From NCBI GenBank assembly GCA_002753505.1, contig PEAG01000004.1:47785-111784 (forward strand): 64,000 nt of DNA, written 5' to 3'. The notes under the pieces are model-generated. The model worked only from the letters and a program-made list of their open reading frames with translations. It ran no database searches and had not been told where the DNA came from. Below are positions 9,459 through 30,371 of this stretch, piece by piece. The translations under genes and the position numbers were made by a program. Source of the DNA: Magnetococcales bacterium HCHbin5. Lineage in GTDB: Bacteria; Pseudomonadota; Magnetococcia; Magnetococcales; Magnetaquicoccaceae. How positions within the stretch are numbered: the stretch's first letter is position 1; every line of letters starts with the position of its first letter.

Positions 9459-9471
9459 GGAAAATCCTTTG

Positions 9472-11589: not shown

Positions 11590-11594
11590 CCCTG

Positions 11595-12965: not shown

Positions 12966-12981
12966 GGTGAGCCTCGCTGGG

Positions 12982-13749
12982 TCAGCGGCTAAAGTTGAGA
13001 ATGACCTGACCGCTCATGCCCGGGGTTAACTCTGGAAAATGGCCAATGATTTCACCGGTCATTCTGACCAGCTGATTGACCGCATCGATTCGGGCCCCAA
13101 ACCCGACAATTTTGGCGGGATAACTGTTGCCGGTTTCGTCAACCCGCAGCAAAAAACGGTCATCCTTGTGGTAGTGTTGCAACCAGCGGGAAGGAATGTT
13201 GACCGTCAGCTCGAGGGTGGCGGGGTTATGAATTTCCATCACCAGCTGTCCCGGCTTGACATACTGATGCTCCTGCACCTCCAGCCGGACAATCTGGCCA
13301 GGAAACGGGGCGATCATCTGACAGCTTTTCAGCTCGGCCCGGATGATGGCAAACTCGGCCTGGGCTTTGGCCGCCTCCGCCTTGGCGTTGGTCAGCTCCA
13401 GCTTGCTGCTCACGTTGAGTTGGTCCAGCCGTTCCAGCATGGCGGCCTTGTCGGCCTCCGCGTCCACAATGGCCTTGGCCCGCAGCAGTTTGGCCTGTTG
13501 CACGGTACAATCAAACAGGCCCAGCGTGTCTCCCGCCTGGAAAAAGGCCCCTTCCCGAAAGGGCAACTGTACCAGACGAGCCCCTATTTCGCTGGAGAGG
13601 GTGGTAAACTGTTTTGCCCGCAGTTCGGCCCGCAGCTCCGGCCCGGCTCCCGCTACCCCTGCTGGGGGCGGAGAGAGGGGCTCCTCGGCCCCCAACAGGC
13701 CGATACTGCCCAGGCAACAGAGCGCGATCCTCCAGACGATCCCTCTCAT
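12982..13749 (-). CDS. short HlyD/RND-adaptor-type periplasmic membrane-fusion protein
   Basis: Signal peptide (IALCCLGSIGLLGA), a lipoyl-like motif (LPFREGAFFQAGDTLGLFD) and a second half-motif (MIAPFPGQIVRLEV). The ATG overlaps the OMF stop (ATGA). Confidence 0.75.
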   Translation of the reverse strand: MRGIVWRIALCCLGSIGLLGAEEPLSPPPAGVAGAGPELRAELRAKQFTTLSSEIGARLVQLPFREGAFFQAGDTLGLFDCTVQQAKLLRAKAIVDAEADKAAMLERLDQLNVSSKLELTNAKAEAAKAQAEFAIIRAELKSCQMIAPFPGQIVRLEVQEHQYVKPGQLVMEIHNPATLELTVNIPSRWLQHYHKDDRFLLRVDETGNSYPAKIVGFGARIDAVNQLVRMTGEIIGHFPELTPGMSGQVILNFSR

Positions 13750-16322: not shown

Positions 16323-16466
16323 CGGTCAGTTGTGAGTAAAGCAAAGAAAGTGCCATATATATCCGGGTCGTAAAATTATTTTTTTACCCGGCAAGCCATC
16401 GTGTGCCATAATGGTGCTGACAGTGGTGGTGCGGTTGCGTTGTCCGGCAGTCAGGAGAAAGGTTCC

Positions 16467-19400
16467 ATGGATATTCGGCAGATGGATTCGATTGTCAAAG
16501 GTTTGACCACGCTGTTACGCCTCCAGCCGGGTCGACCGCTGCCGTTGGCGGCGGAGGGGCGGTTTTTCCTGGAGTTGGAGCCTAGAATCCTGTTCGATGG
16601 GGCGGGTTTGTTGCCAGCCGGGTTGGATGATCCTCTTTTTGACGGCCATGGGGCGGAGCCCCCCCAGGATGGTACCCCGCATGGATTGGAGGCGGTTGCA
16701 GAGTTGGCCACCGCCCTGCAGGGACACCTGTTGCCGGAGCAGCCCCTGCGCCGGGAGATTGTGTTTGTCGATCCCCAGGTTGAAACCTATCAAACCCTGC
16801 TGGCCACCGCTGCCCCCGATCGTCTGGTGGTCGTGCTGGATGCTGACCAGGATGGGGTGGAGCAGATTGCCGCCACCCTGGCCCGGCAGGGTTCGTTTGA
16901 TGCCGTTCATATCCTGTCCCACGGCACCACCGCGCAGCTCTCTTTGGGCAACAGCACGCTGTCGGCCGCCAACCTTGACCATTACGAGAAGCTGTTGGCC
17001 CAATGGGGGCAAGCCATCAACCAGACGGGCGATATTCTGATCTATGGCTGTGCGGTGGGAGCCGGGGCAGAAGGGGCCGCCTTTGTGCATCGATTGGCCG
17101 CACTGACCGGCGCGGATGTGGCCGCTTCAGAGGATTTGACCGGGGCGCAAAACAAAGGCGGTGACTGGGATCTGGAGGTGGTCAGCGGCACCATCGATGC
17201 CACAATACCCTTCTCCCCCGAGGGCCAGTCCCACTATGAGGCCATCCTGGCCGCTACCGCCATCAATCTGGCCAGCCTGAATGGTGCGACAGGCTTTCGC
17301 CTGGATGGGGTGACAGCGGGAGATTTGGCGGGCATCTCCGTCCATGCGGCCGGCGACATCAACGGCGATGGCTTTGATGATCTGATCGTCGGGGCCCGCA
17401 ATGCCACCGGCTCCCATGGTGCCAACTCGGGTTCCACTTTTGTGGTATTCGGCCAATCGACCGCCTTTGGTGCCACCTTTGGCTTGAGCAGTCTGAATGG
17501 TGCCAACGGCTTTCGACTGGATGGTGCAGCGGCCGGGGACTATTCCGGTTATTCCGTCAGTGGCATCGGTGATCATAACGGCGACGGTTTTGATGATCTG
17601 CTGATCGGTGCCCACAATGCCTCCGGGGCAGCGGGTGCCAGCTTTGTGCTGTTTGGCCAATCGACCGCCTTTGCCGCCACGGTGGATCTGAATGGCCTGA
17701 CCGGTGCCGATGGCTTTCGCTTGAATGGCGTGACAGCGGGTGACATGTCAGGGAAGTCAGTGAGTGGGGCGGGAGACATCAATGGCGACGGGTTCAGCGA
17801 TCTGCTGATCGGAGCCTACAAGGCGAATCCGAATGGTGAACCCATCAGTCATGGAGTGGGCTATGTGGTCTTCGGCAAAGCGGCGGGTTTCGGGGCCACG
17901 TTTGAGCTGTCCGATTTGAGTGGTGCCAACGGCTTCCGTCTCGATGGGGCGGCGGCTGGTGATTATGCGGGTGTCTCGGTCAGCAATGCCGGTGATATTA
18001 ACGGCGATGGGTATGACGATCTGGTGATTGGGGCCCACTGGGCGAGCCAGGGGGCCGTCACCTACGCTGGGGCCAGCTTTGTGGTCTTTGGCAAAGCGGC
18101 GGGCTTCGGTGCAACCCTCAATCTCTCGACTCTGGATGGCAACAGCGGTTTTCGTCTGGATGGTGTGGTCGGGGGGGTGCCGGGTGATCAGGCGGGCCGT
18201 TCGGTCAGCGCGGCGGGGGATTTCAATGGCGATGGCTATGATGATCTGCTCGTCGGTGCCTACAAGGCGGATCCCAGTGGCGGTGCGGACGCTGGTTCCA
18301 GCTATCTGGTCTTCGGCAAGGCTGCCGGTTTCAGTTCGGTCCTGAACCTTTCCAGCTTGAGCAGCACAAGCGGTTTTCGGCTGGATGGCGGGGCGGCTGG
18401 TGATGAATCGGGCCGTTCGGTATCGGGGATTGGGGATGTCAACGGCGATGGTTTTGCGGATCTCATCATCGGCGCGCGTTATGCGGACCCGACGGCGGCC
18501 AATGCCGGGGCCGCCTATGTGATCTTTGGCCAATCGTCGGGTTTCAGCACCATCAGCCTCTCGGCAAACAGCTTTACCGGCTATTACCTGAACGGCCTGG
18601 CCGCCTCTGATTTTGTCGGTATTGCGGTCAGCGGGGCCGGGGATGTCAATGGGGATGGCTTTGGCGATTTTATCATTGGGGCAACAGGGGCGGATCCGGG
18701 AGCCAGAAACAGTGCGGGCTCCAGTTATCTGCTGTTTGGCAGCGATGCCACCGGTGCGGTGACCTTTTCCGGCACCAGCGGTGCGGATACGCTCACTGGG
18801 GGCACGGCCGGTGCGGAGCGGTTTGTGGCCGGTGCCGGCAACGATACCATGACAGGTGGTGGCGGAGCGGACATTTTTCATGGTGGTGCCGGAGACGATA
18901 CCATCACCGTTGCCGATCTGACCTTTCAATGGGTGGATGGGGGGCGTGGCAGTGACACGCTGGCACTGTCGGGCTCCGGCATGCAGATGAACCTGACCAC
19001 CCTGCGGGGCAGATGGAGTGCCATTGAGATCATTGACCTGACCGGCAGTGGCAACAACCTGTTGACGGTGACAGCATTGGATGTACTGAACCTGTCTGAC
19101 AGCAGCAATACCCTGACGGTCAACGGCAATGCGGGGGACAGTGTGGTGATGGGCAGTGGCTGGACCAGTGGTGGCACGGTGGGCGGTTACCAGATCTATA
19201 CCCAGGGCCAGGCAACCCTGCGGATCAGTGCTGCCACCGGTGCCACGGCTGCGGTTCCCACTTTGACCGCCTTTGCCGCCCCCGCAGGCACGGTCAATGA
19301 AGACAGCCAGGCAACCATCACCCTGGCCGATTTGAAGGCGGTCGGCAACGAAGCGGACGCAGACGGTACGGTGGACGGCTTTGTCATCAAGGCTGTCAGC

Positions 19401-20975
19401 AGCGGGACACTGTGGATCGGTACCAGTTTGGCAGCCGCAACCCCCTGGGCAGCGGGCAGCAATGAGACGGTGGACGCCACCCACAACGCCTATTGGACCG
19501 GGGCGCAGGATGCCAATGGTACACTGAACGCCTTCACAGCGGTCGCAAAAGACAATGCCGGGACAGAATCCAGCACGGCGATACAGCTGCAGATGAGCGT
19601 CACGGCCGTCAACGACAGCCATACCGGCGGTGCCAGCATCAGCGGCACCGCCACCCAGGGTCAAACCCTGACCGCCACCCATACCCTGGCCGATGTGGAT
19701 GGTCTGGGTGCCATCAGTTATCAGTGGAGGGCCAACGGCAGCAATATCAGTGGCGCGACCGGCTCCACCTTTGTTCTGACTGAGGCCCAGGTGGGCAGTA
19801 CCATCACCGTTGTACTCAGTTATACCGATCTGCAAGGGACGGCTGAAAGTGCGACCAGTAGCGCAACCGCAACGGTAGCGGCCCTGGCTTCGCCCCCCAG
19901 CTCTTCCGGGACACCTGCGCCTGCACCCGCACCTGCAAGCCCAACCACCGGTGGCAGTGCAACAGAGGCGGCAACACCGGTTGCCGATTCAGGCGGTTCG
20001 GGCAGCACTGCCACGGCGACAGCGGTGACGGTTGTGCAGACCACGGCCGCTGCGACCGGATTGGATGCGGTGGCTGGCAGCGGTTATGGTGGTTTGATCA
20101 CGGCGGCGAGTGGCACCGCACCAGCCCCTGTCAATCCGGTGATCGAACAGCTTTCTGCGGTCAATGCACTGCTGCTGACCGATCTTTCATTGTCGGTGGT
20201 CGCTGTTATCCCCACGGATACGGTCTTTGCGGCGGTCAGCGGTGATGGGCAGGGCGCAGCAGGCACCCTGGTGCTGGCCAACCCCTCCAATGCCAGCGGT
20301 CGACTCTCCGGCAGCGGTTTGGCGGAGACAGGCGGAGGGAGTGGAACGGGAGAGCATGGAGCCGGGGATATGTTTATCCATTCAGGCCAGGAACGGGAGG
20401 ATGGCTTTTTCAGCAAAAAACGAATACCCGGCATGGAACTGCTGGGGGATGGTCTGATCAAGGTGGCTGGTTTTATCGGGTTGGGTCTGGAAAACGGTGG
20501 GCCTGTCAAGGTGGAAGGGTTTGGGGGCAGCGGCGGCGATGAGCAGGGCATGGCTGTCGAGGGTTTCGGCGGTCGTGCTACGACCGAACGGCCAGTGGCG
20601 GTGGAGGGATTTGGTGATGTGGGCGCGGGGGAGGCCAATCCGGCTGCCCCCGATGGGTTTGGCGATGCAACCGCCGTGAACCATCGGCAGCAGGAGGACG
20701 AGGATGAGCTGTTGATCCAGCAGGAACCCGCCACAGAGCCGGTGAGTGCTTCGGCCCAGGGCTCCGCCGAGGCGGTTGGGGCAAAGCAGGAGGCGGAAGA
20801 AAACCAGGATGCTGTCGGCGACGAGGATGACAGCAGCGCACAGGTGCCGGAAAACCAGCCGACAAGGGCAGGAAAGCCCGCATTTACGGCCCAGCTCTCC
20901 CCGTTTGGTGCCAAGGGATTTCATCAGGCCAGCATGGCACTGCTCAAAAAAATGATTGAGTCTCCGGTGAAATAG
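16467..20975 (+). CDS. giant secreted DUF4347 / FG-GAP (7-blade) / RTX-repeat adhesin-like protein
   Basis: ATG at 16467 with AGGAGA about 8 nt upstream. LEPRILFDGA opening and a DUF4347-like block (VFVD...HILSHG...LLIYGC...GGDWDLE). Seven GDxNGDG[FY]xDLxxGA FG-GAP repeats. RTX nonapeptides (GGAGNDTMTGGGGADIFHGGAGDDTI). Ig/cadherin-like VNDxxTG modules. Low-complexity acidic tail. Confidence 0.85.
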   Translation: MDIRQMDSIVKGLTTLLRLQPGRPLPLAAEGRFFLELEPRILFDGAGLLPAGLDDPLFDGHGAEPPQDGTPHGLEAVAELATALQGHLLPEQPLRREIVFVDPQVETYQTLLATAAPDRLVVVLDADQDGVEQIAATLARQGSFDAVHILSHGTTAQLSLGNSTLSAANLDHYEKLLAQWGQAINQTGDILIYGCAVGAGAEGAAFVHRLAALTGADVAASEDLTGAQNKGGDWDLEVVSGTIDATIPFSPEGQSHYEAILAATAINLASLNGATGFRLDGVTAGDLAGISVHAAGDINGDGFDDLIVGARNATGSHGANSGSTFVVFGQSTAFGATFGLSSLNGANGFRLDGAAAGDYSGYSVSGIGDHNGDGFDDLLIGAHNASGAAGASFVLFGQSTAFAATVDLNGLTGADGFRLNGVTAGDMSGKSVSGAGDINGDGFSDLLIGAYKANPNGEPISHGVGYVVFGKAAGFGATFELSDLSGANGFRLDGAAAGDYAGVSVSNAGDINGDGYDDLVIGAHWASQGAVTYAGASFVVFGKAAGFGATLNLSTLDGNSGFRLDGVVGGVPGDQAGRSVSAAGDFNGDGYDDLLVGAYKADPSGGADAGSSYLVFGKAAGFSSVLNLSSLSSTSGFRLDGGAAGDESGRSVSGIGDVNGDGFADLIIGARYADPTAANAGAAYVIFGQSSGFSTISLSANSFTGYYLNGLAASDFVGIAVSGAGDVNGDGFGDFIIGATGADPGARNSAGSSYLLFGSDATGAVTFSGTSGADTLTGGTAGAERFVAGAGNDTMTGGGGADIFHGGAGDDTITVADLTFQWVDGGRGSDTLALSGSGMQMNLTTLRGRWSAIEIIDLTGSGNNLLTVTALDVLNLSDSSNTLTVNGNAGDSVVMGSGWTSGGTVGGYQIYTQGQATLRISAATGATAAVPTLTAFAAPAGTVNEDSQATITLADLKAVGNEADADGTVDGFVIKAVSSGTLWIGTSLAAATPWAAGSNETVDATHNAYWTGAQDANGTLNAFTAVAKDNAGTESSTAIQLQMSVTAVNDSHTGGASISGTATQGQTLTATHTLADVDGLGAISYQWRANGSNISGATGSTFVLTEAQVGSTITVVLSYTDLQGTAESATSSATATVAALASPPSSSGTPAPAPAPASPTTGGSATEAATPVADSGGSGSTATATAVTVVQTTAAATGLDAVAGSGYGGLITAASGTAPAPVNPVIEQLSAVNALLLTDLSLSVVAVIPTDTVFAAVSGDGQGAAGTLVLANPSNASGRLSGSGLAETGGGSGTGEHGAGDMFIHSGQEREDGFFSKKRIPGMELLGDGLIKVAGFIGLGLENGGPVKVEGFGGSGGDEQGMAVEGFGGRATTERPVAVEGFGDVGAGEANPAAPDGFGDATAVNHRQQEDEDELLIQQEPATEPVSASAQGSAEAVGAKQEAEENQDAVGDEDDSSAQVPENQPTRAGKPAFTAQLSPFGAKGFHQASMALLKKMIESPVK

Positions 20976-20991
20976 CCTGGTTTTGCCACGA

Positions 20992-22698
20992 TCAGCCACC
21001 GGATCCGGCGGTTGCTGCGGGCTGCTCCTCCTCTTTTCCGGTTTTTTCAGTGGCCTGTTTTTTCCCGGCAGCCGTTGGTGTCGGCTGCTGACCTTGTTCC
21101 GGCAGCAAATATTTGCGATACTCGGCCCGCCTTTCGTCCGCCAGCAGCATGACCAGCAGCGACTGGATCAGGTTGGCGATGGCCTCTGTCTGCTCGGACA
21201 GGGTATGGTTGGAGATGCTGCTCTGCTGGATCAGATGATAGTTGGCTGTCGCCATATCCCGCAGCATGGCCAGCTCCCCTTGCAGATCGCTGATCAATTC
21301 AGCCTGCTTGAGGGAGGCGGTCTGTACCTCGCCGGACCACCCGGTCAGCCGGGTTGTCCCCTCTGTGACAAAGAGGATGTTTTCAGCGGCCTGCTTGACA
21401 TCATCCCGCCCCGTTTTGATCTCCCGGTAGGCACTCTCCAGCAGGCTGACCACCCCGTCAATCAGCTGGATAATGTTTTGACTGAGCCCCTTGATCTCAT
21501 CGGTAAAGATGGCAAAACCCCGGCTGGCCTCCTGACGGGAGGCCTCGGCACTGGCACTGGTTGCCAACAGGTTGACCTGCATGGTGCTGTTGCTGAGAGC
21601 CTGCATGTTGCGTTGCATCTGCTCGCACAGACCGACCGAACGATTGGCAACTTCTCGAAATTTCATGATAAAACCATCTGCATTTCTGGCTTTTGTTTCG
21701 GTTTCCCTGGAAAGCGCGCTTGTCTCTGCCATGATGCGGATGGTGTTGGCGGTCAGGCCCTCCAGGATGGTCAGGGCACCGCTTGAGGCACGCATGGACT
21801 CCTGTCGGCTGTCATCATTGCTGGTGAGGTGTACGAAGGTGCTGCCAATCTGTTGGGCCGAATTGAGCAAAAAATCGGCCTTTTTGCGAAACGGTTCTGC
21901 CAGGTTGCGCAGGGTGTCCACCTGCTGTCGCAAACGGCGCAGATGGGTGCTGTGAATGGCAACGACCAGGAAGAGACCACCCACAACAAAAAGGGCCATG
22001 ATCAGGACAAAGGCAACCCAGAGTAGATAATGGGCCTTGTATGCCTCGGATGTCAGGTTGCGGGAGAGTTCCCGGGTGGCATCAAACGCCTGTTTCAATT
22101 TGTTGCCCAGCCGCTTGGTCTCATCATCCAGCGATGAGGTGTTGGCACTGAGATTTTTTAAATATTCCTGTTCCGCTTCCGCCAGTGTCTGGTTGCCGTT
22201 GCCGGTGATAATGCCGGCTTTGGTCAGAAAGCGATATTTGTATATGTTGCGAATGATATTGCCGGCCAAATGTTCAAAGTCGGCATGTATCTTTTGAAAG
22301 TCGCTGATAATGCTTTTGACCTGTTCCAACTGCCGTCTGTCGGCGTCCGATTGGGCGTTTTCCATCCCCTTCTGGGCCAAATATCGGGCCTCAACCAGCA
22401 CATTGGTCAGTCGGCGGCCCGAATTGGCGAAGGCCTCGTTGGCCACCTCAAACTTGCCCCGATCGTCGGTTTCACCAAACAGAAACGCCTCGTTGATGTG
22501 CAATGTCTGATCCAGTTGTTGGCGGGTGGCCTCCGAAACGGCCAATGCCAGGGCAATGTCTTCCCGATCCAGCTTTGCCAACCGGTTTTCCAACTGGCGG
22601 TTCATATGGATGCCAAACAGCCCCATGGCCAACGTGGTGAGTCCCAGGAACAGAAACAACACGGTAAGCTGGCCCGACAATTTCATATTTTTTAACAT
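20992..22698 (-). CDS. methyl-accepting chemotaxis protein (divergent signalling hairpin)
   Basis: Two TM spans flank a helical periplasmic domain. The MCP tip-like segment NLLATSASAEASRQEASRGFAIFTDEIKGL compares with the canonical [31 protein letters not shown]. It lies 16-31 nt downstream of the channel gene. The start is either ATG 22698 or TTG 22713. Confidence 0.75.
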   Translation of the reverse strand: MLKNMKLSGQLTVLFLFLGLTTLAMGLFGIHMNRQLENRLAKLDREDIALALAVSEATRQQLDQTLHINEAFLFGETDDRGKFEVANEAFANSGRRLTNVLVEARYLAQKGMENAQSDADRRQLEQVKSIISDFQKIHADFEHLAGNIIRNIYKYRFLTKAGIITGNGNQTLAEAEQEYLKNLSANTSSLDDETKRLGNKLKQAFDATRELSRNLTSEAYKAHYLLWVAFVLIMALFVVGGLFLVVAIHSTHLRRLRQQVDTLRNLAEPFRKKADFLLNSAQQIGSTFVHLTSNDDSRQESMRASSGALTILEGLTANTIRIMAETSALSRETETKARNADGFIMKFREVANRSVGLCEQMQRNMQALSNSTMQVNLLATSASAEASRQEASRGFAIFTDEIKGLSQNIIQLIDGVVSLLESAYREIKTGRDDVKQAAENILFVTEGTTRLTGWSGEVQTASLKQAELISDLQGELAMLRDMATANYHLIQQSSISNHTLSEQTEAIANLIQSLLVMLLADERRAEYRKYLLPEQGQQPTPTAAGKKQATEKTGKEEEQPAATAGSGG

Positions 22699-22729
22699 AG
22701 CGGTCACTTGCAAAAAGTGTGGACAGTGA

Positions 22730-24853
22730 TCAAAATTTTTCCCGGAATAAAATCAGTACAACGCCCAGAACCAACAGCGGATAGATTGCCATGGCGACCA
22801 GGTCCAGCTTTTGGGCGGCATCCACCCTCTTGATGTTCACCAGATAGTTGACAAAGGCTGTTTCAACGATGGTGAGAAAAAACAACACGTAGGATGAAAG
22901 AAAAAAAATATCCCCGCGTACCAGATAGCCTACCCCCAATTTGTTGACATTATGATAGGCCATGGCACTCAACATGGTGGTGATTCCCACGGAGTAGCGG
23001 GTGGAGAGTACGTCATAGCCTATGCTGAAAATCACATAAGCCGTGGTCACCAGCACCAGAAGCGGCAACAGGGTGATCATGTAACTGCCCCATTTGCGTT
23101 CCAGCAAGACCTGGTAATTGTATTGAGAGTGATCCAGCACAAACAGTTTATTGTCAAATTTAGGGTTTCGATAACTCCAGAGAAAATCTTTTTGAGTGGT
23201 AAACTGCATATGATTGATATCCTTCCAGGGTCCAAAGTCCAGCTTTCTGGTCAGGAAAGAGTCATCGTCAATATCGGTGACCAGGATCAAATCCTCGTTG
23301 GTTTTTGCTTTGGGTTTGATGCGGATTTTTAATGTCTGTCTGTCGAACGGATAGTCATGCAAAGGGAAAAAGTCGGCCATACGGGCAGAGACGATATAAG
23401 AGATAAAATTATTATTCGTATTCTTGTCAAAATATTTTTCCCGGACGGCGGCGGTCAACACCTTGCCGTAGGTCATTTCAAAGTCCAGATTTTTATTCTT
23501 GCCCGGATCCCAGCGGAACCAGAGGTTAAAGTTGGCGACAAATTGGCCGGCCACCGGATCAAACGACTCCACCTCGTTCAGGTGTATGCCGGTGTAGACC
23601 ACCGTCGCCCGTTTCATGAACTGGTTATCCATGAAGAATATGTCGGAATTTTTTTGCCTGATTTTGGCCAGCTCCTGATATTTGACGTGGGTCAGTTGAA
23701 AACGGGCGGGGATGTATCGGCCATGTTTCACCTGTCCCACCCACAAATTGCGACGGCTGGAACCCAGCTCATTGAAATAGAGGTCACCCGCAATGCTGGG
23801 CATGGCGTCCTGCTGGGTCACCATTTTGCGCAACAGGTTGCGCAGGTCGGTGCCCTCCGGGCCGGCTTGACGGATGGCATGGGCGATCAGGCGGGTGGCT
23901 TCATAGGTGTAGGTGGAGACCCAGTCCGGCTCTTGCTGAAATTCCCGCAGATAATCAACCTGATAATTTTTGGAAGCCTCGCCAAACAGGCTGGGCAGGT
24001 AGGGGGTGACGGCATAGACATCCTCTGCATAGATGCCTGCATGACGAATAAACTGGTTGCCACCCAGGCTTTCACCCCCGATCACATCGGTTTCCACCCC
24101 ATTTTTCCGCAAAAATTTAATCATTCTGGCCGCATTGACATAGTTCATGGCCAGAAAAATCACATCGGCGTCCGACAACGCCTTGAGCCGACTTTTGAGC
24201 AGATCAATGTTGGCCTGCCGGTAATCCAACTCCACGGCCACCGACGGAACCACTTCATTGACGGCCATTTCTGCCGCGAAATATTCCTTCAGGGAGCGGC
24301 CATAGGGGGTCTTGTCGTTGATAATGGCCACATTTTTCCGATCCAGTCCGTGCAGGATATAGTTGGCCAGAAAACGGGCCTGATAAAAATCATCGGGCAT
24401 CAGGCTGAAGGCCCAATCATTGTTGGCGGTCAAGGCGGGCAGGGTGGCGGAGGGTGAGATAAAGGGAATTTTATGGGCTTTGTAAATTTCGCCACCCGCA
24501 ATGGTCGCCATACTGAAATAGTGGCCGACAACCGCCACAAGATTGGGTACTGCCATCAATCTTTTGGCACTTCTTTCTGCGTAGGTGCTGACATTGGCCG
24601 CACTCCGGTCGTCGGATACGGCCAGTTTGAGTTCATATTTTTCCAACTCTCCGCTCTGGTTGATATCCTGGATGGCCAACGCCACCCCCCGTTGCATGGA
24701 GAGTCCCACATCCTTGAACGGTCCAGACATGGGAGCGGCCAGGCCAACATGCAGCACCTCCTTTTGTTGGGAGAGTGCCAGCCCCAGATAGGCCATGCTC
24801 GCCAACAGCACCAGCACACCCACCACGAGCAGGAAAAATTTTATCCTGGCCAT
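22730..24853 (-). CDS. type-I periplasmic binding protein (LivK/Peripla_BP_6-like) fused to a prokaryotic pentameric ligand-gated ion channel
   Basis: aa 30-380 resemble Leu/Ile/Val-type PBPs (VGLAAPMSGPF...GVALAIQDIN...VVGHYFS). aa about 400-707 carry the Cys-loop-region signature YPFDRQTLKIRI, a pre-M1 LERKWGSY, and four TM helices with a short M3-M4 loop. Confidence 0.8.
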   Translation of the reverse strand: MARIKFFLLVVGVLVLLASMAYLGLALSQQKEVLHVGLAAPMSGPFKDVGLSMQRGVALAIQDINQSGELEKYELKLAVSDDRSAANVSTYAERSAKRLMAVPNLVAVVGHYFSMATIAGGEIYKAHKIPFISPSATLPALTANNDWAFSLMPDDFYQARFLANYILHGLDRKNVAIINDKTPYGRSLKEYFAAEMAVNEVVPSVAVELDYRQANIDLLKSRLKALSDADVIFLAMNYVNAARMIKFLRKNGVETDVIGGESLGGNQFIRHAGIYAEDVYAVTPYLPSLFGEASKNYQVDYLREFQQEPDWVSTYTYEATRLIAHAIRQAGPEGTDLRNLLRKMVTQQDAMPSIAGDLYFNELGSSRRNLWVGQVKHGRYIPARFQLTHVKYQELAKIRQKNSDIFFMDNQFMKRATVVYTGIHLNEVESFDPVAGQFVANFNLWFRWDPGKNKNLDFEMTYGKVLTAAVREKYFDKNTNNNFISYIVSARMADFFPLHDYPFDRQTLKIRIKPKAKTNEDLILVTDIDDDSFLTRKLDFGPWKDINHMQFTTQKDFLWSYRNPKFDNKLFVLDHSQYNYQVLLERKWGSYMITLLPLLVLVTTAYVIFSIGYDVLSTRYSVGITTMLSAMAYHNVNKLGVGYLVRGDIFFLSSYVLFFLTIVETAFVNYLVNIKRVDAAQKLDLVAMAIYPLLVLGVVLILFREKF

Positions 24854-24906
24854 ATCATTCCACGTTAAAGCACTGAATTAATATAATGATACCCAAGAGA
24901 GAGGTA

Positions 24907-25437
24907 TCAGGGATCCGTCTCTTCCCGATTGGTATTGTCCGGTCGGTTGGAGGAGTGGTCCGGGTCGGGATTGACAATGCACTGGCCGTGGCCATCCCAC
25001 AGGCGAATCGTTAAACCGGCATCCGGCGTATAACACTGCACCGAAGTCGTATCATCTCCGGCAGCGATCTCCTGCGGATCGGTTCCAAACCAGCCAAAAC
25101 GGCCCCGATAGCCCTGACCACTGGTCGTTATCGCTCCCGTTGCGTTGCTCTCCTGCGCAGCGGCGGTTGTCTTGCGCGGCGTGGCTGTCGGTTGGGTCGG
25201 GGCGGCCTGGGGTTCAACACCCTGTGACAGCCCGGGGGCAAGTGAAACGGAGAGCAGCAACCATAGAAGCCACCGGCTGTTTCGTCTCCCGGATACGCCG
25301 TTTGATAAAAAGGCACCGGCAGCCGAACGATCGTGAATATGCCCCTGATACATCCCCATGGAACGCTCCCGTGATGCCATACCATAAACCGTTGGGAGCC
25401 GATCAAGGTTGGGTCCGACTATCCAACAGAGGCCCAA
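24907..25437 (-). CDS. small secreted hypothetical protein (possible Tat/Sec signal)
   Basis: GRRNSRWLLWLLLSVSLAPGLSQG signal-like segment, then a roughly 100-aa mature part with 2 Cys. It ends 53 nt upstream of the channel gene on the same strand. The start is ambiguous (25437, 25380 or 25359). Confidence 0.4.
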   Translation of the reverse strand: MGLCWIVGPNLDRLPTVYGMASRERSMGMYQGHIHDRSAAGAFLSNGVSGRRNSRWLLWLLLSVSLAPGLSQGVEPQAAPTQPTATPRKTTAAAQESNATGAITTSGQGYRGRFGWFGTDPQEIAAGDDTTSVQCYTPDAGLTIRLWDGHGQCIVNPDPDHSSNRPDNTNREETDP

Positions 25438-25769
25438 ACCTCATCAAGCATTGGAATGTCCAAGCAATATTCATGCTAAAAACAGTGTGATTTGCTTTTG
25501 CATCTATTGCCGCTCTTTTGTTATCCTGTATTAAAAACAAACATTTTTTTGTTTTGTACGGTGGATGTATTCATGGCGGAAGTGTTCAATTCCGGCCGTT
25601 GGGTGAGGTGGATGGCAGGGAGGCAAATGCAGGTATGGCTGTTGCATCTGCTTGGCATTGGAGTGGATATTATAACAGTGGCTGTGTATTTCGGGTTTTA
25701 CATGCGTGCCGCAGTTTGTTACAGTTTATCGCTGCAGGGTATGCACTCGTCAGGGCAGGGAGGATCCCA

Positions 25770-28214
25770 ATGGTCAGGCAGATATTTCGCACAGTGCTGG
25801 CGGAAAATGGCGTGTTAAAACCGGATTTTCTGTCGCTTTGGGTTTTGATTGTCGGGTTGGCCATCAGTGTGGTGACGGTTGTATCCCTGCAACACAGCAT
25901 CAGGGATGCAACCAACCAGACAATGACCTTGGCAATCAACACGGCTCGTGCCAACTTTTCCAAGGATGTTGCCTTCCGGCAGTGGGCCACCCGCCATGGT
26001 GGCATTTATGTCCCTGTTGACGAGCGCACACCGCCCAACCCCAACCTGGCACACATCCCGGAGCGTGACATCCGTACCCCCTCGGGTAAACAGTTAACCC
26101 TCATGAATCCCGCCTACATGCTCCGTCAGATCATGAATGAGTATTCCGATCTGTATGGTGTTCGGGGCAAGATCACCTCCCTGAAACCCCTGAATCCCAT
26201 CAATACCCCCGATCCCTGGGAAGAGCGGGCACTGCACCTGTTCGAGGCTGGAAAAGAGGAGATCATGGAGGTGGTGGGCGATGGTCTGGATGCCTCCCTG
26301 CGACTGATGCGCCCCATGATCACCCGTGAAGGTTGCCTGAAATGTCATGCCTTTCAGGGGTACAAGGTGGGCGATGTGCGTGGTGGCATTGGTGTGCGTG
26401 TGCCGTTGAAAAGTTTTCGGGAGACAGAGGCACTTGTTCTGAGCAATATCAAGTTTGTGCATGCCTTTTTCTGGGGAGTCGGGATGTTTTTGCTCGGTCT
26501 CTACTATCAGATGGCGCGTCAACGCATGCGGGAACAGGTTGCGGCAGAACTTGCCTTGCGCAAGGAGCGGGATGCCATCCGGGCGGCCAAAGAGTCTGCC
26601 ATACAGGCGCAGTTTCTCAGCGACCAGGCCCTGGAGTTGGCCAAGGCGGGCCACTGGTGTATTGATTTCAGCGAGGGAGATGAATATTACATCTCGTCGG
26701 AGCGCACGGTTACCATTTTTGGTGACCCGCCACGGGACGATTTGCGTTACCACCTCATGAACGATTGGTATGTCAACATTGAAGCGGCTGACAAGGCTGC
26801 TGCGGAGGCGACACTGGCCAATTATTTGGCCGCTCGCGATGGAAGCCAGCCGAAATACGACATGATTCACCCGTACAAGCGTCCCGGTGATGGCCGTGTC
26901 GTTTGGATTCACGCCTTGGGACATATGGTGCGGGATGCAGAGGGTCGGCCGGCTCACATGTATGGTGTGGTGATGGATGTTACCGACAGCAAACTGGTTG
27001 AGAATGCGATTCGGGAGGCGAAGGAGGCTGCCGAGCGGGCCAGCAGGGCCAAAGGTGAGTTTTTGGCCAATATGAGCCACGAAATCCGTACACCCATGAA
27101 TGTGGTGTTGGGCATGTCGGACGTGTTGCTTGAAACCGGTCTTGATGCAGAGCAACGCCGTATTGTGCAGACCATGAGCCGTTCGGGCAAGGCATTGATG
27201 GGTGTGATCAGTGACGTGCTGGACTTTTCCCACATCGAATCAGGGCGTTTCATGTTGTCCGAACAGCCGTACTGTCCAAGACAGACGGTCGAGGAGATCA
27301 TGGATTTTATGCGATGGTCCGCTGAGGAAAAGGGGTTGATGTTGTCAGGGGATTTCGCTTCCGGTATACCGGAAGCGGTCATGGGAGACCACGGACGGCT
27401 GCGACAGGTGTTGATCAACTTGTTGGGGAACGCCATCAAGTTTACCCGGCATGGAGAGGTCTCTGTGCGGTTGGCACCCCATCCCCAGGAGCCGGAGAGC
27501 CTCCTGTTTTGCGTCTCTGATACCGGGATCGGCATCGCTCCAGAACAGCTGGAAAATATTTTTCAGCAGTTTACCCAGGCAGATTCCAGTATTACCCGTC
27601 GGTATGGCGGTACCGGACTGGGGCTGGCGATTTCCCAAAGGTTGGTGGAACTGATGGGGGGTCGCATTTGGGTGGAGAGCCAACTGGGGCAGGGGAGCCG
27701 CTTTTTTTTCAGCCTGCCATCTCGTTTGGCACCGGTTGCGGTCCCGTTGGTTACCGCATCGGAACAGGTGGTCGGGGCGTTCACCAGAGAGCTGCGCATT
27801 TTGATTGCAGAGGATGCACCAGAAAACCAGGCTCTGATCCAGGCCTATTTAAAAAAATCGCCGCACCATCTTGTCTTTGTCAATGATGGGGCGGAGGCGG
27901 TGGCACAGGTGAAAAAGGAGCTGTTTGACCTGGTGCTGATGGATATCCAGATGCCCAACATGGATGGGTATGCGGCCACTCGTGCCATACGTCGCTGGGA
28001 GAGGGAGGAAGGGGGAGATCCCTTGATCATCATGGCACTGACTGCGCATGCTTCCATCGGCAAGAGAGAGGAAAGTTTGGCGGTCGGGTGTAACGACCAT
28101 CTGACCAAACCCATCAAGAAGCAGACTTTACTGGATGCCATTCAGCGGGTTGCGGAATGGCTTGACAGCCAAAGGGGCGTGGTGGCAAGCCAGCCACTCC
28201 AGGGAGAGCCATAG
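25770..28214 (+). CDS. hybrid sensor histidine kinase with a periplasmic DUF3365 (c-type heme) sensor, a PAS-like region, HisKA/HATPase and a C-terminal receiver
   Basis: ATG 25770 with GGGAGGA 6 nt upstream. Heme motif CLKCH within a DUF3365-like block. H-box [15 protein letters not shown]2 box [10 protein letters not shown]. Receiver [14 protein letters not shown]...KP. Confidence 0.85.
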
Positions 28215-28268
28215 CCGTCGTTTGCTGTTTTTTTCCCGCAAGGGCACCACGTTCGGAAGGGATGTCGG

Positions 28269-30371
28269 ATGAGTCAACCGGGTGAACAAAAATCTTTGGG
28301 CGGTTTGCTGAAATTGCTGGCTCCTCTGTTGGTGGCGATTCCCGCTGTCGCCATTTTGTCGTGGACCTTCTATTTCACCAGCAACCAGTTGGAGCAGTGG
28401 GCCGAGTCAAGTCTGGATAAGATTGGCGAACAGGTCATTGAAAAGACGGAAAATTTCCTCAATTCAGCCGCATTTTCCGCCGACTACAATGCCACCTGGA
28501 TCGCAGCCAACGCCAATACGGAAAAATTTACTGAACATTTTTACCAGATGGCGCAAAAGCAGATGGCCCATTTTCCCCACTACAAGTTGATCTATTTTGG
28601 GGACCAGTCCGGCAACCATTGGTTGAACAAAAGGGATCCGGACGGCAAACTGCGGGCTCGTGTGGTGCAGCGGCTGGATGACTCTGCTGCCAGCCGGGAA
28701 CTGCTGACCAGGGCCAGCGCGCTCTCTGAAACAGATCCGGCTGAGCGGGAGTCACGCCGACGTTTGCTGGCTCCCCTGCTGCGGACAGCCTGGCACGAAC
28801 AGGACGGAACCGGTCGATTGCAATTCAGCTATTGGGATCCGCTCAAAGCGTATGATCCCCGCCTGCGGCCCTGGTATCGGGGGGCTGAGGCGATGAAGGG
28901 CAAATCCTGGATTGATGTTTACAGCTGGGAAAACAAGTTTCAGGACAAGGTTGAGTACGAGGCGGGCATTACAGTCTCCTATCCTGTCGTTCAGCAAGGC
29001 AGAGTGCTGGGCGTTGTTGGCATTGATCTGGTGCTGGGTGCCATCTCTGAATTTCTCAGTGAGCTGCAGGTTGCTGCCCATGGTCGTGCCTTCATCTTTG
29101 ATTCCCAGGGTCGGGTTGTCGGGATGCCGCATCAGAGTCAACTGCTGCGCCCCTCGCGGACGGAGGCCAACGGGGTGGCACGTTTGCGGCTGCATGATTT
29201 GCAGGATGTGGCGGTGGCGACCTCCTACGAAACTTTGCGCAACCAGTTGGGTGTGACGCAAAAAAATGGGCAGTCTGCTGGCCCGCTGGGGCAGTTTTCC
29301 GCACAGGTGATCCGTTTTTTTGTGCAGGGTGAAGCGTTTCTTGGGTTTTTTCGTCCCCTGGACCCGGACTTTCAGTTGGATTGGTATGTGGGCGTCCTTA
29401 TGCCCGAGTCGGATGTCAAAGGGGCGTTGGAAGAGCAGTTCCGCTGGGTCTTTATCGGTATTTTTGTGGTTGTTCTGCTCTTTTTTGCGCTGATTCCGCT
29501 GCACTTGAAGGCGGAAAAAGATCGCCGCTGGATTCAAAATGCCTTTTCCAAGTATGTTTCACCCAACCGCGTGGCCTATTTGTTGAAAAATCCAGACCAT
29601 TTGGCGTTGGGTGGCGAGTACCGGGACTGCTCCTTTGTCATGACCGACTTGGCAGGTTTTACCGCCATGATGGAGCAATGTACGGTGGAGCCGCAAGAGA
29701 TCGTGCATACCTTGAACGAGTACCTGGACGGAATGGTGGGTATCGCCTTCAAGCATGAAGGAACGTTGGATCGCATTGTCGGGGATGCGGTCGCCGTACT
29801 GTTTTCGGCTCCGGTTGTTCAGGAGGATCATGCCCAGCGGGCAGTGAATTGTGCGCTGGAGATGGATCGATTTGCCACACAATTTGCCTTGGAAAAGCAG
29901 CGGCAGGGGTTGCCTTTCGGCTTTACCCGGATTGGCGTCAATTCGGGCCGGGTTTTGTTGGGCAATTTTGGTGGCAAGCTGGTTTTTGATTATCGGGCTT
30001 TGGGGGATCCCATCAATACCGCCTCCCGGTTGGAGAGCATCAACAACCAGTTGGGTACCCGGGTGTGCGTGAGCGGTGAGACAGTCTCCCGGGTAAGCGG
30101 TTTTTGCGGCCGTCTGGTGGGTCATTTGATCCTGAAGGGGAAAGAGAACGGCATCCATGCCTATCAGCCGTTACCAGAGGAGGCGAGGGATACCCCTCTG
30201 GTGCGCTGTTATGAATCGGCCTACCAGTTGATGGCCTCGAAAGATTCCCATGCCTTTGCCGCCTTTGCCCAGGCTCTTGCAAAATGGCCGGAAGATCCTT
30301 TGTTGCGGTTTCATTATGCACGCCTGTTGGCGGGACAGAGTGGAGAGAGTATCTTTTTTACAGACAAATAA
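28269..30371 (+). CDS. membrane-bound class III adenylate/guanylate cyclase with an extracytoplasmic Cache-like sensor
   Basis: TM, a roughly 350-aa periplasmic domain, TM, then cyclase motifs (FVMTDLAGFT, GDAVAVLF, RIGVNSGRVLLGNFGG, YRALGDPINTASRLES). Confidence 0.85.
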   Translation: MSQPGEQKSLGGLLKLLAPLLVAIPAVAILSWTFYFTSNQLEQWAESSLDKIGEQVIEKTENFLNSAAFSADYNATWIAANANTEKFTEHFYQMAQKQMAHFPHYKLIYFGDQSGNHWLNKRDPDGKLRARVVQRLDDSAASRELLTRASALSETDPAERESRRRLLAPLLRTAWHEQDGTGRLQFSYWDPLKAYDPRLRPWYRGAEAMKGKSWIDVYSWENKFQDKVEYEAGITVSYPVVQQGRVLGVVGIDLVLGAISEFLSELQVAAHGRAFIFDSQGRVVGMPHQSQLLRPSRTEANGVARLRLHDLQDVAVATSYETLRNQLGVTQKNGQSAGPLGQFSAQVIRFFVQGEAFLGFFRPLDPDFQLDWYVGVLMPESDVKGALEEQFRWVFIGIFVVVLLFFALIPLHLKAEKDRRWIQNAFSKYVSPNRVAYLLKNPDHLALGGEYRDCSFVMTDLAGFTAMMEQCTVEPQEIVHTLNEYLDGMVGIAFKHEGTLDRIVGDAVAVLFSAPVVQEDHAQRAVNCALEMDRFATQFALEKQRQGLPFGFTRIGVNSGRVLLGNFGGKLVFDYRALGDPINTASRLESINNQLGTRVCVSGETVSRVSGFCGRLVGHLILKGKENGIHAYQPLPEEARDTPLVRCYESAYQLMASKDSHAFAAFAQALAKWPEDPLLRFHYARLLAGQSGESIFFTDK

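Follow-up and report, generated by a model that had tools for sequence, protein, structure and literature searches.

On the reverse strand of the window, the 64,000-nucleotide stretch of DNA analysed here, a small ORF is followed by a gene that fuses a class-I periplasmic binding protein (PBP) to a ligand-gated ion channel of the pentameric type (pLGIC), and this in turn by a gene encoding an MCP-like protein (Table 1). The PBP-pLGIC gene is open from ATG to stop, with zero internal stops in its translation and an in-frame stop nine codons 5' of the ATG, and 34 full-length orthologues of the same length (47–88% identity), each a single ORF, were found in independent assemblies. Pfam, NCBIfam, AF2 and Foldseek bore out the layout proposed in a sequence-only reading of this DNA, namely one 707-aa ORF comprising an anchor, a LivK-like PBP and a complete prokaryotic pLGIC. 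The GC content of the gene is low (0.51), yet its GC3 of 0.64 is the same as that of its neighbours, and recent horizontal transfer is unsupported. A tblastn search found no second copy within the window.

In the product of the small upstream ORF, a signal peptide is combined with a low-complexity stretch and, at the C terminus, a C...LWDxxGxC motif; the stop of the ORF lies about 55 nt before the channel ATG. Motif-bearing orthologues occupy the same place at loci L001, L005, L007, L008, L010, L011, L013 and L015, and the ORF is missing from the second clade. A promoter and terminator scan performed no better than on shuffled sequence, so that operon boundaries were drawn from spacing and conservation only.

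Table 1 Features of the PBP-pLGIC locus, in window coordinates.
Feature	Residues or product	Position	Strand	Basis
Small upstream ORF		24907..25380	(-)	ORF listing; start codon uncertain
Whole PBP-pLGIC gene	707 aa + stop	22730..24853	(-)	ORF listing and translation
N-terminal hydrophobic segment	aa 1-29	24767..24853	(-)	Hydropathy; AF2 helix 2-28
Class-I (LivJ/LivK-type) PBP domain	aa 30-389	23687..24766	(-)	Pfam, PDB alignments, Foldseek, invariant columns
Short conserved junction	aa 390-404	23642..23686	(-)	AF2 secondary structure
pLGIC extracellular beta-sandwich	aa 405-587	23093..23641	(-)	AF2 strands, Foldseek, conservation
Pro-loop DYPFDRQTLKIRI	aa 500-512	23318..23356	(-)	Sequence; invariant columns
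Transmembrane domain M1-M4	aa 588-702	22748..23092	(-)	AF2 helices; phmmer alignment to GlyR/GABA-A transmembrane domains
Pore helix M2	aa 613-636	22946..23017	(-)	Residue-by-residue alignment to GlyR alpha1/alpha3 M2
Partner gene, MCP-like protein	568 aa	20992..22698	(-)	Pfam, family profile versus Tsr, conserved adjacency

The N-terminal segment could be a signal peptide but more probably serves as a signal anchor that stays uncleaved; a consistent small-x-small cleavage site is absent from the N termini of most orthologues. The binding-protein domain that follows is readily recognized, and the HMMER comparison proposed in the sequence-only reading came out positive for both PBP profiles: Peripla_BP_6 (Pfam) matched aa 35–376 at E=8.6e-42 (144.5 bits, compared with a gathering score of 31.7) and ANF_receptor (Pfam) matched at 1.2e-17. 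By sequence, the domain also matched the PDB entry 4gnr (1.7e-25). The PBP part of the AF2 model has a pLDDT of about 90 and, in Foldseek, superposes on LivJ (4gnr) with a target TM-score of 0.90 and an r.m.s.d. of 2.3 Å; with the full-length model, the best 50 matches were all PBPs.

Residues S79, A101, T102, Y150 and E226 of LivK (2lbp, mature numbering), the last of which we take to be a ligand-backbone residue, align to S114, A136, T137, Y184 and E261. Among 35 orthologues, S114, T137, Y184 and E261 are invariant and A136 is at least 90% conserved, and across a wider set of 59 PBP-pLGICs the majority residues at these positions are the same (S in 50, T/S in 45, Y/F in 51 and D/E in 41). 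As judged by alignment, the residues that hold the alpha-carboxylate and alpha-amino groups of the amino acid in LivJ/K are kept here (LivJ ligand contacts were taken from PMC6983066). The side-chain pocket differs from that of LivJ/K (W18 to V49, Y202 to N237 and Y276 to S313); the ligand is therefore not nameable and could lie outside the proteinogenic amino acids. A riboswitch that could have pointed to the ligand was sought with Rfam over positions 20500–25700, which returned nothing meaningful.

In the AF2 model, the last PBP strand extends to about aa 389, a helix spans aa 393–400 and the first strand of the beta-sandwich starts at about aa 405. This helix corresponds to the N-terminal alpha-1 helix of pLGICs. 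In the 35 orthologues, E394 and L395 within the junction are invariant, as are P382-A383-R384-F385-Q386 just upstream. The beta-sandwich is the most conserved domain of the protein (mean column identity of 0.78 versus 0.67 for the PBP) and was modelled with moderate confidence (pLDDT 50–90). Its Pro-loop, located between beta6 and beta7, is the equivalent of the Cys-loop without the cysteines, and both motifs picked out by the sequence-only reading are present, the [FY]PFDxQ-type signature at aa 500–512 and the pre-M1 LERKWGSY at aa 584–591. Within the Pro-loop, Y501-P502-F503-D504 and Q506 are invariant in the 35 orthologues, and P502 and D504 also in 60 diverse PBP-pLGICs. The same orthologues share an invariant loop-C stretch (W559-S560-Y561-R562, P564 and K565), and loop B is lysine-rich, with K513, K515 and K517 conserved.

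Profile searches were less straightforward for the channel part. The sequence-only reading had named Neur_chan_LBD and Neur_chan_memb as the profiles to run, and here the curated thresholds were missed: Neur_chan_memb (Pfam) reached 11.1 bits compared with 28.1, and Neur_chan_LBD gave no match. NCBIfam LGIC_1 matched at E=2.4e-14, with 53.5 bits compared with a curated cut-off of 500. Since these cut-offs were missed, the pLGIC call is based on E-values, relatives and fold. A phmmer search of the PDB found a GLIC/GlyR chimera (2.2e-10), and an exhaustive phmmer search with aa 385–707 retrieved 1143 representatives at E<=1e-3, many aligned over nearly the whole query; several relatives carry a recorded PF02932 match. 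Only 4 proteins came back when the channel part was used in a word-indexed search for homologues. The fold was examined with a separate, channel-only AF2 model (pLDDT 76), for which the 50 best Foldseek matches in the PDB were all whole pLGIC subunits, with about 320 columns aligned. DeCLIC (9fth) was the best of these (TMq 0.70), and GLIC and sTeLIC gave TMt values of 0.69 and 0.72, respectively. The model shows a complete pLGIC fold in the channel part; failing at its curated thresholds, the Neur_chan test is thus the wrong criterion for pLGIC membership here.

The four AF2 transmembrane helices span aa 588–610 (M1), 613–636 (M2), 644–673 (M3) and 677–702 (M4), confirming the very short M3–M4 loop noted earlier, which measures 3 residues. 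The M2 alignment places S617 at -2', T618 at -1', R619 at 0', T625 at 6' and L628 at 9', with K638 at 19', just past the end of the M2 helix. R619, M631, H634 and K638 are invariant in the pore region, L628 (9') is 97% and T625 (6') 86% conserved, and the gating positions R586 (pre-M1 Arg) and P597 (M1 Pro) are invariant. GLIC, ELIC and sTeLIC likewise have a beta-sandwich with a Pro-loop, four helices and a minimal M3–M4 loop (target TM-scores of 0.69–0.72) and, unlike PBP-pLGIC, lack an N-terminal domain. These three channels are cation-selective, their pore mouth carrying an acidic residue at -2'/-1', whereas PBP-pLGIC has S-2', T-1', R0' and K19'. One third of the wider fused family has an acidic pore-mouth ring; the present clade lacks it and has invariant R0' and K19' in its place, and with this substitution the pore may pass anions or be poorly cation-selective. 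The best PDB sequence matches for the transmembrane domain are GlyR, GABA-A and GluCl, and M2 is GlyR-like in its pattern (R0'-x-x-x-G4'-I5'-T6'-T7'-x-L9' and a basic 19'). Unlike those receptors, the protein has no P-2'/A-1' motif, Cys-loop cysteines or intracellular domain, and anion selectivity is our guess from the M2 sequence.

The sequence-only reading missed the conserved MCP-like partner gene, whose start (MLKNMKL) lies 31 nt past the channel stop. In its product, TM1 is followed by some 200 aa of periplasmic domain, aa 33–232, resembling a four-helix bundle, and then by TM2 and a signalling hairpin. It scored 34.4 bits with MCPsignal (Pfam), just under the GA of 34.6, and 2.9e-4 with TarH; the family profile aligned with Tsr at E=2.5e-31 over Tsr 257–512, with one single-residue gap at the tip. 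No match to a HAMP domain was found, and TM2 leads straight into the helix aligned with Tsr 257 onward. The hairpin is of Tsr length, with a divergent tip, NLLATSASAEASRQEASRGFAIFTDEIK, that is one residue shorter than that of Tsr and altered in its contact residues. Conservation is highest in the tip (0.66) and the periplasmic domain (0.54), compared with about 0.35 in the cytoplasmic arms. Given this unusual tip and the absence of che genes from the 64-kb window, coupling of the MCP-like protein to CheA/CheW is uncertain. A homologue search with the alignment of the MCP periplasmic domain gave no matches, probably reflecting a limit of the index and not a real absence.

At all 20 independent genome loci that include downstream DNA, from Magnetococcales and Ca. 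Magnetomorum HK-1, the MCP-like gene lies directly 3' of the channel gene on the same strand, at a distance of 0–290 nt; one further locus is cut off within the channel gene. The converse test, starting from the MCP side, placed the channel gene directly upstream in five out of five informative metagenome loci. The genes flanking the pair vary between loci. No ABC genes adjoin the channel gene at the Magnetococcales loci examined; at the Magnetomorum locus, ABC genes are found on the other strand, some 4 kb downstream. Pairwise-identity matrices of channel and MCP correlate with r=0.84, and those of PBP and MCP with r=0.93. Two genomes each contain two paralogous pairs, every channel with its own MCP, a pattern indicating that the channel–MCP pair has duplicated and diverged as a unit. 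Collectively, these comparisons show the MCP-like gene to be an obligate, co-diverging neighbour of the channel gene, a relationship that is new here. The adjacency shows a functional link between channel and MCP, the nature of which it does not specify.

The PBP-pLGIC architecture itself has been known since 2005, when bacterial pLGICs with a PBP-I domain fused at the N terminus were described by Tasneem, Iyer, Jakobsson and Aravind (Genome Biol 6:R4; PMC549065), with examples from Magnetospirillum magnetotacticum and Bradyrhizobium japonicum; on other grounds, the same authors proposed a chemotaxis role for bacterial pLGICs. The sequence-only reading was thus correct that comparative genomics had noted extra N-terminal ligand-binding domains. 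The 2005 fusions share with ours the domain order, a class-I PBP before a Cys-less pLGIC core, and the chemotaxis hypothesis. The operons in that paper contain stand-alone PBP-II or Cache genes and no MCP signalling protein, whereas this clade has the obligate MCP-like partner and one subclade also the small secreted ORF. Classification of N-terminal domains with local HMMs assigned a PBP to 78 of the 148 nearest channel representatives, indicating that PBP fusion is common, not rare, among prokaryotic pLGICs. No characterized PBP-fused pLGIC was found in the searchable literature, which agrees with the earlier statement that functional or structural work on such a member was lacking. DeCLIC papers of 2022–2026 leave DeCLIC as the sole characterized pLGIC with an N-terminal domain, and Jaiteh et al. 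2016 do not discuss N-terminal domains. DeCLIC, likewise a prokaryotic pLGIC, has its gating modulated by a large N-terminal domain in the periplasm; that domain consists of two Ca2+-binding jelly-roll lobes, in contrast to the Venus-flytrap PBP here, and the channel is modulated by calcium and pH and has no known chemoreceptor partner. This Desulfofustis channel with its N-terminal domain was reportedly presented by Hu and colleagues in 2020, with cryo-EM work later.

We favour, with a probability of roughly 0.55, a reading in which closure of the PBP on an amino-acid-like solute modulates a channel that acts in chemosensing with its MCP partner. The encoded protein is presumably a subunit of a homopentameric inner-membrane ion channel, and each subunit would carry a periplasmic LivJ/LivK-type Venus-flytrap that sits on top of a canonical pLGIC extracellular domain, connected to it through a junction that is rigid and very short. 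A small amino-acid-like solute would close the flytrap, and closure, transmitted through the junction to the beta-sandwich, would shift the equilibrium between closed and open pore. In this role the flytrap would resemble the LIVBP-like amino-terminal domain of NMDA receptors or the N-terminal domain of DeCLIC. Either the ion flux or the periplasmic domains in their liganded form would then be read by the co-encoded MCP-like protein, such that channel and MCP-like protein would constitute one chemosensory unit in these magnetotactic bacteria. Gating or modulation by a captured solute is plausible because the LivJ/K backbone residues are invariant in the family and the junction between the PBP and the extracellular domain is short and conserved. 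A functional analogy exists in the LIVBP-like amino-terminal domains of NMDA/AMPA receptors, which place a class-I PBP fold before a ligand-gated channel as an allosteric modulator; the channel core there is unrelated (tetrameric, P-loop type), and the agonist site is in a second, PBP-II-type domain.

Alternatively, as Tasneem et al. suggested in 2005 (PMC549065), the PBP could do no more than capture and concentrate the solute and pass it to the canonical inter-subunit pLGIC site, which would be the true gate. The extracellular domain, better conserved than any other part of the protein, would suit this proposal, and the invariant loop C and conserved loop B lysines fit a functional orthosteric pocket, possibly for an anionic group. 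With loop C strongly conserved and loop B lysine-rich, the canonical extracellular-domain site may bind the real agonist, a point against the favoured reading. However, these loops can be explained equally well as surfaces that contact the PBP or the MCP partner, and loop C is unconserved across the wider fused family. To our knowledge, no binding protein passes its ligand to a fused domain, which also counts against a relay, and we regard it as unlikely.

Less probable still is a scheme in which the MCP-like protein provides the main output: tethered to the membrane through the channel body, the PBP with its ligand would dock on the periplasmic four-helix bundle of the MCP, with conduction secondary or lost. 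Binding proteins are known to dock on Tar, Trg and Tap, as maltose-binding protein does on Tar. MBP-Tar, GBP/RBP-Trg and DppA-Tap resemble the present pair in joining a periplasmic binding protein with an MCP that has a four-helix-bundle sensor, whereas in the present case a single polypeptide contains both binding protein and ion channel, and its gene is linked to that of a dedicated, divergent MCP lacking HAMP. Docking would be consistent with the pairing being obligate in both directions, with the co-divergence of the two genes, and with the periplasmic domain and tip being the best conserved parts of the MCP. By contrast, retention of R0', T6', L9', R586 and P597 is unexpected for a mere anchor, and beyond this clade related PBP-pLGICs lack a neighbouring MCP, implying that the fused channel works without an MCP.

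Two further readings carry almost no weight. Every named orthologue is annotated as an "ABC transporter substrate-binding protein", a name that arises because only PBP Pfam domains pass threshold; although the PBP domain is a true LivJ/K homologue, a role in branched-chain amino acid uptake is ruled out by the domain architecture, as 320 extra residues build a complete pLGIC subunit and ABC permease or ATPase genes adjoin the gene neither in the window nor at most related loci. The annotation is wrong, and the protein is a PBP-domain homologue but no transporter component. A sequencing or assembly error joining a PBP gene to a separate channel gene, a general possibility beside which two short channel-only database entries exist, is ruled out by the comparative data: P0214 is truncated by a contig end (locus L027), P0066 opens on the final 31 PBP-domain residues and therefore also looks like a fragment, the junction residues are invariant, and the same fusion occurs in dozens of 50%-identity clusters elsewhere. 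The sequence-only reading had allowed for a stop or frameshift splitting PBP from channel; there is none, and because the 34 full-length orthologues from independent assemblies share the continuous single-ORF architecture, the comparison indicates that the fusion is genuine and no assembly artefact.

Prokaryotic pLGICs, GLIC, ELIC and DeCLIC among them, serve as the chief structural models of human neurotransmitter receptors. About half of the closest relatives of the present channel carry an amino-acid-type binding domain, none of them studied according to the searchable literature, and "ABC transporter substrate-binding protein" is a misannotation shared by the whole family. The pocket of this domain points to an amino-acid-like ligand, and the domain can be expressed alone and screened. 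The dedicated chemoreceptor-like partner turns a 20-year-old chemotaxis hypothesis into a testable interaction, and the fusion offers a natural parallel to the modulation of NMDA/AMPA channels by LIVBP-like domains. A bolder proposal, which we put forward only tentatively and consider improbable as it stands, is that PBP-pLGIC and its MCP-like partner are physically joined in one receptor complex of magnetotactic bacteria, in which the amino-acid-like solute, on binding to the flytrap, both gates a possibly anion-permeable channel and signals through the dedicated chemoreceptor. If true, a channel of the neurotransmitter-receptor type would be wired directly into bacterial taxis, which would be the first physiological role for a prokaryotic pLGIC and possibly the first anion-selective one.

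The gene for the fused periplasmic binding protein (PBP) and pentameric ligand-gated ion channel (pLGIC) subunit is one uninterrupted reading frame, as the sequence-only reading had described it, and its ATG is preceded, nine codons 5′, by a stop in the same frame. A stop or frameshift that would split the two halves, which that reading had considered, was not found: 34 full-length orthologues from independent assemblies (47–88% identity) keep the same continuous frame and the PBP-to-channel junction is invariant across them, which refutes an assembly artefact. The fusion is genuine. Two short channel-only database entries exist; one is truncated where its contig stops, and the second looks like a fragment too, because it starts with the tail of a PBP domain. 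The hydrophobic N-terminal segment, read earlier as a signal or anchor, contains a plausible cleavage site (A-L-S) in the window protein. Because this site is absent from most orthologues, the segment may be retained as a fifth membrane helix.

Features of the PBP-pLGIC gene, its product and the adjacent genes (gene positions in window nucleotides; M2 register set by alignment to GlyR)
Feature	Position	Strand	Details
PBP-pLGIC gene	22730–24853	(-)	single ORF, ATG to stop, 707 aa, 0 internal stops
N-terminal hydrophobic segment	aa 1–29		
Peripla_BP_6 (Pfam)	aa 35–376		E=8.6e-42, 144.5 bits vs gathering score 31.7
ANF_receptor (Pfam)	aa 56–331		
LivK S79	S114		invariant in 35 orthologues
LivK A101	A136		≥90% of 35 orthologues
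LivK T102	T137		invariant in 35 orthologues
LivK Y150	Y184		invariant in 35 orthologues
LivK E226	E261		invariant in 35 orthologues
LivK W18	V49		differing side-chain pocket
LivK Y202	N237		differing side-chain pocket
LivK Y276	S313		differing side-chain pocket
Pro-loop stretch	aa 500–512		DYPFDRQTLKIRI
Pre-M1	aa 584–591		LERKWGSY
Four C-terminal helices	aa 588–610, 613–636, 644–673, 677–702		
M2 positions	S617, T618, R619, T625, L628, K638		-2′, -1′, 0′, 6′, 9′, 19′
MCP-like partner	20992–22698	(-)	568 aa, start 31 nt past channel stop
Small ORF	24907–25380	(-)	~55 nt upstream of channel gene, same strand

The Pfam matches bore out the proposed LivK-like type-I PBP. In sequence it comes closest, among proteins of known structure, to amino-acid binding proteins of the LivJ/LivK type (4gnr, 1.7e-25; Atu2422, 3ip5; LivK, 2lbp), and an AlphaFold2 model of the domain (pLDDT of approximately 90) matched 4gnr with a TM-score of 0.90. 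LivK pocket residues (mature-protein numbering; LivJ ligand contact list in PMC6983066) were mapped by HMMER alignment, and their conservation was counted in 35 orthologues. The backbone-pocket residues are conserved, and they also predominate at these positions in 59 wider fused relatives, whereas the side-chain pocket differs, so that the pocket looks built for some amino-acid-like zwitterion. E261 is equivalent to LivK E226, which we take to have a role in the ligand pocket. At one paralogous pair (Magnetococcales CAYFNE01, locus L038), a gene of the glutamate:Na+ symporter family (Glt_symporter, 9064–10254) lies 3′ of the gene for the methyl-accepting chemotaxis protein (MCP)-like partner, on the same strand; this single instance is a weak hint at glutamate as the ligand.

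For the channel half, Pfam Neur_chan_memb reached 11.1 bits (threshold 28.1), Neur_chan_LBD gave no match on the fused protein, and NCBIfam LGIC_1 had E=2.4e-14, yet its 53.5 bits fall short of the cut-off, which is 500. Taken literally, the profile check named in the sequence-only reading would thus go half against a pLGIC. Three independent lines settle the matter in its favour. A phmmer search of the PDB returned GLIC chimeras, GlyR, GABA-A and GluCl at 1e-10 to 1e-5. An exhaustive phmmer search with aa 385–707 against 1.84 billion representatives yielded 1143 relatives at E≤1e-3, many aligning over nearly all 323 query residues. When a channel-only AlphaFold2 model (pLDDT 76) was compared with the PDB by Foldseek, each of the 50 best matches was a complete pLGIC subunit aligned over approximately 320 columns (DeCLIC, TMq 0.70; GLIC, TMt 0.69; sTeLIC, TMt 0.72; GABA-A beta3 also among them). 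The Pro-loop, pre-M1 motif and M1–M4 noted from sequence are all present, and the M3–M4 loop described as very short has three residues. Y501-P502-F503-D504 of the Pro-loop, pre-M1 R586, the M1 proline P597 and M2 0′ R619 are invariant in the 35 orthologues, and L628, the leucine at 9′, is kept in 97%. The earlier interpretation of the architecture as anchor, LivK-like PBP and complete prokaryotic pLGIC was therefore correct.

Tasneem, Iyer, Jakobsson and Aravind reported PBP-I domains fused N-terminally to bacterial pLGICs, with examples in M. magnetotacticum and B. japonicum, and proposed a chemotaxis role in which extra domains concentrate or sense ligand (Genome Biol 2005, PMC549065). The statement of the sequence-only reading that comparative genomics had noted extra N-terminal domains on bacterial pLGICs is thereby supported. 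According to the DeCLIC papers (2022, 2025, 2026), DeCLIC is the only characterised pLGIC with an N-terminal domain, which consists of two jelly-roll lobes, in contrast to the PBP here. Like that reading, our literature search found no functional or structural work on a PBP-fused pLGIC. The fusion is common: among the best 148 representatives of the channel part at 50% identity, a LivK-like PBP precedes the channel in 78, an N-terminal domain is lacking in 56, and 12 have another large one. The architecture is therefore not novel, having been described by comparative genomics in 2005, and it is widespread. The close relatives are all from metagenome-assembled Magnetococcales genomes; among those with a name, Magnetococcus sp. 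DMHC-8 (85%) and YQC-3 (84%) match best. Without exception, the named relatives are annotated as "ABC transporter substrate-binding protein", a name that arises because only PBP Pfam domains pass threshold and that the attached complete channel refutes.

A related fusion was seen in six proteins of 1039–1152 aa (P0039–P0044), which combine a LivK-like PBP and a pLGIC-type beta-sandwich with an MscS domain (PF00924) and, in most, a cNMP-binding domain; one such locus is L028 4758–7904, in a Thiotrichales genome from a metagenome. They matched the window channel half by hhalign (probability 98%, E=1.5e-13), retaining the WFRF motif and having lost the YPFD Pro-loop. MscS is normally a heptameric channel family, and a pentameric-channel sensor module appears to have been grafted onto it; we know of no description of a pLGIC-sensor/MscS fusion.

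In the window protein, the PBP closes with a strand that runs to about aa 389, and the beta-sandwich opens with one that starts near 405; a short helix between the two (393–400) is the counterpart of the pLGIC alpha-1 helix. P382–Q386, E394 and L395 are invariant. No flexible linker separates PBP and extracellular domain, which would favour mechanical coupling between them. The extracellular domain has the highest mean column identity of the protein (0.78, versus 0.67 for the PBP); loop-C W559, S560, Y561, R562, P564 and K565 are invariant and loop-B lysines K513, K515 and K517 are conserved. Either the canonical pocket may still be used, or these loops may be contact surfaces. Such high conservation of loops B and C supports the rival relay model put forward by Tasneem et al., which we consider unlikely. 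Throughout the window-protein clade, -1′ is S or T, -2′ is never acidic, and R0′ and K19′ are invariant; E or D occupies -2′ in 20 of 59 wider PBP-pLGICs, the nearest outgroup paralogues among them. In the pLGIC family, an acidic ring at -1′/-2′ is a mark of cation-selective channels. Anion permeability is possible in this clade, since the acidic ring is missing and basic rings line both pore mouths.

The true start of the MCP-like partner, placed by orthologue comparison, is MLKNMKL. The protein begins with TM1, followed by a conserved periplasmic domain of approximately 200 aa that matches TarH weakly; TM2 and a cytoplasmic hairpin come next. The Pfam MCPsignal score fell just under threshold (34.4 versus 34.6 bits); a profile of 20 orthologues matched E. 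coli Tsr at E=2.5e-31, spanning Tsr 257–512 and interrupted only by a gap of one residue where the hairpin has its tip. The tip is recognisable but divergent, and no HAMP domain intervenes between TM2 and the helix aligned from Tsr 257. Conserved periplasmic residues (21979–22698, minus strand: Q64, E84, E103, Q109, K136, H138, E142 and H143), with the motif EKxHxDYEH, form a His/Glu/Gln pattern that resembles a metal-binding four-helix bundle. At one locus (L011, 7539–9753) the partner occupies two overlapping ORFs, through a frameshift or assembly error.

In each of the 20 independent genome loci whose sequence continues past the channel gene (one further locus stops inside it), an MCP-like orthologue lies 3′ of that gene, 0–290 nt away and in the same orientation. 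Among these loci are those of Ca. Magnetocorallium (channel identity 38%) and of Ca. Magnetomorum HK-1, a multicellular magnetotactic bacterium whose JPDT accession was confirmed; the outer flanks vary between loci. In reverse, scanning JGI metagenomes with the partner tip motif gave six true relatives, and a PBP-pLGIC gene was directly upstream in 5 of the 5 with enough upstream sequence. Pairwise-identity matrices correlated with that of the partner (r=0.84, channel part; r=0.93, PBP part), and each channel has its own MCP in two genomes with two paralogous pairs each; duplication and divergence have therefore affected the two genes together. No MCP neighbour was present beside two more distant PBP-pLGICs (one Myxococcota, one unassigned contig). 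This obligate pairing defines the window-protein clade, not the whole PBP-fused class. By contrast, the operons of Tasneem et al. (PMC549065) contain PBP-II and Cache genes and no MCP signalling protein, and our literature search found no report of the pairing. Metagenome Ga0272440 (L040–L044) holds at least four distinct pairs. The pair occurs both in Magnetococcales and in HK-1, a deltaproteobacterium (L033, JPDT01000425.1); with the M. magnetotacticum example of Tasneem et al., this hints at a link to magnetotactic lineages, or gene transfer among them.

The small ORF has counterparts at eight loci (L001 7715–8014, L005 7587–7943, L007, L008, L010, L011, L013 and L015). It encodes a signal peptide, a region of low complexity and, at the C terminus, a conserved motif, G.FGG..EI.PGD...C(8-16 aa)[LF]WD..G.C, whose cysteines probably close a disulfide loop. 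The ORF is shared by the subclade with 62% or more identity to the query, and none was seen in the other clades; its product could be an accessory protein of the periplasm or, conceivably, a ligand. Transcribed divergently from the small ORF and the channel gene are a hybrid histidine kinase (Tll0287-like, PAS, HisKA, HATPase, receiver) and a dCache_1 adenylate/guanylate cyclase (25518–30371, plus strand); in Magnetococcus sp. YQC-3 (L005), too, the neighbour on the upstream side is this cyclase. Within 9472–20975, a type-I-secretion-like set comprises an 830-aa Peptidase_M50/HlyD fusion, two HlyD proteins and an OEP with a Cds6/SnoaL C terminus, adjoined by a 1524-aa DUF4347/FG-GAP/RTX protein. 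Peptidase_M50/HlyD-type genes adjoin the pair in L001 and L003 too and may be a remnant of a common gene order.

Our preferred reading, at a probability of about 0.55, is allosteric. An amino-acid-like solute would close the PBP flytrap, the rigid junction would transmit this movement to the beta-sandwich, and opening of the pore, presumably that of a pentamer, would shift in response; channel and MCP-like partner would jointly serve as a chemosensory unit. The data themselves establish the architecture, the conservation of pocket and pore, and the obligate pairing of the genes; ligand class, gating, selectivity, assembly into pentamers and the kind of coupling are inferred. A tethered binding protein with the MCP as main output, by analogy with MBP and Tar, is distinctly improbable, as the pore is conserved and relatives without an MCP exist. 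To the architecture known since 2005, these results add an obligate MCP-like partner that defines the clade, an unusual selectivity filter and a directly screenable ligand pocket. The PBP-pLGIC/MCP pair offers a direct way to test which role bacterial pLGICs play.
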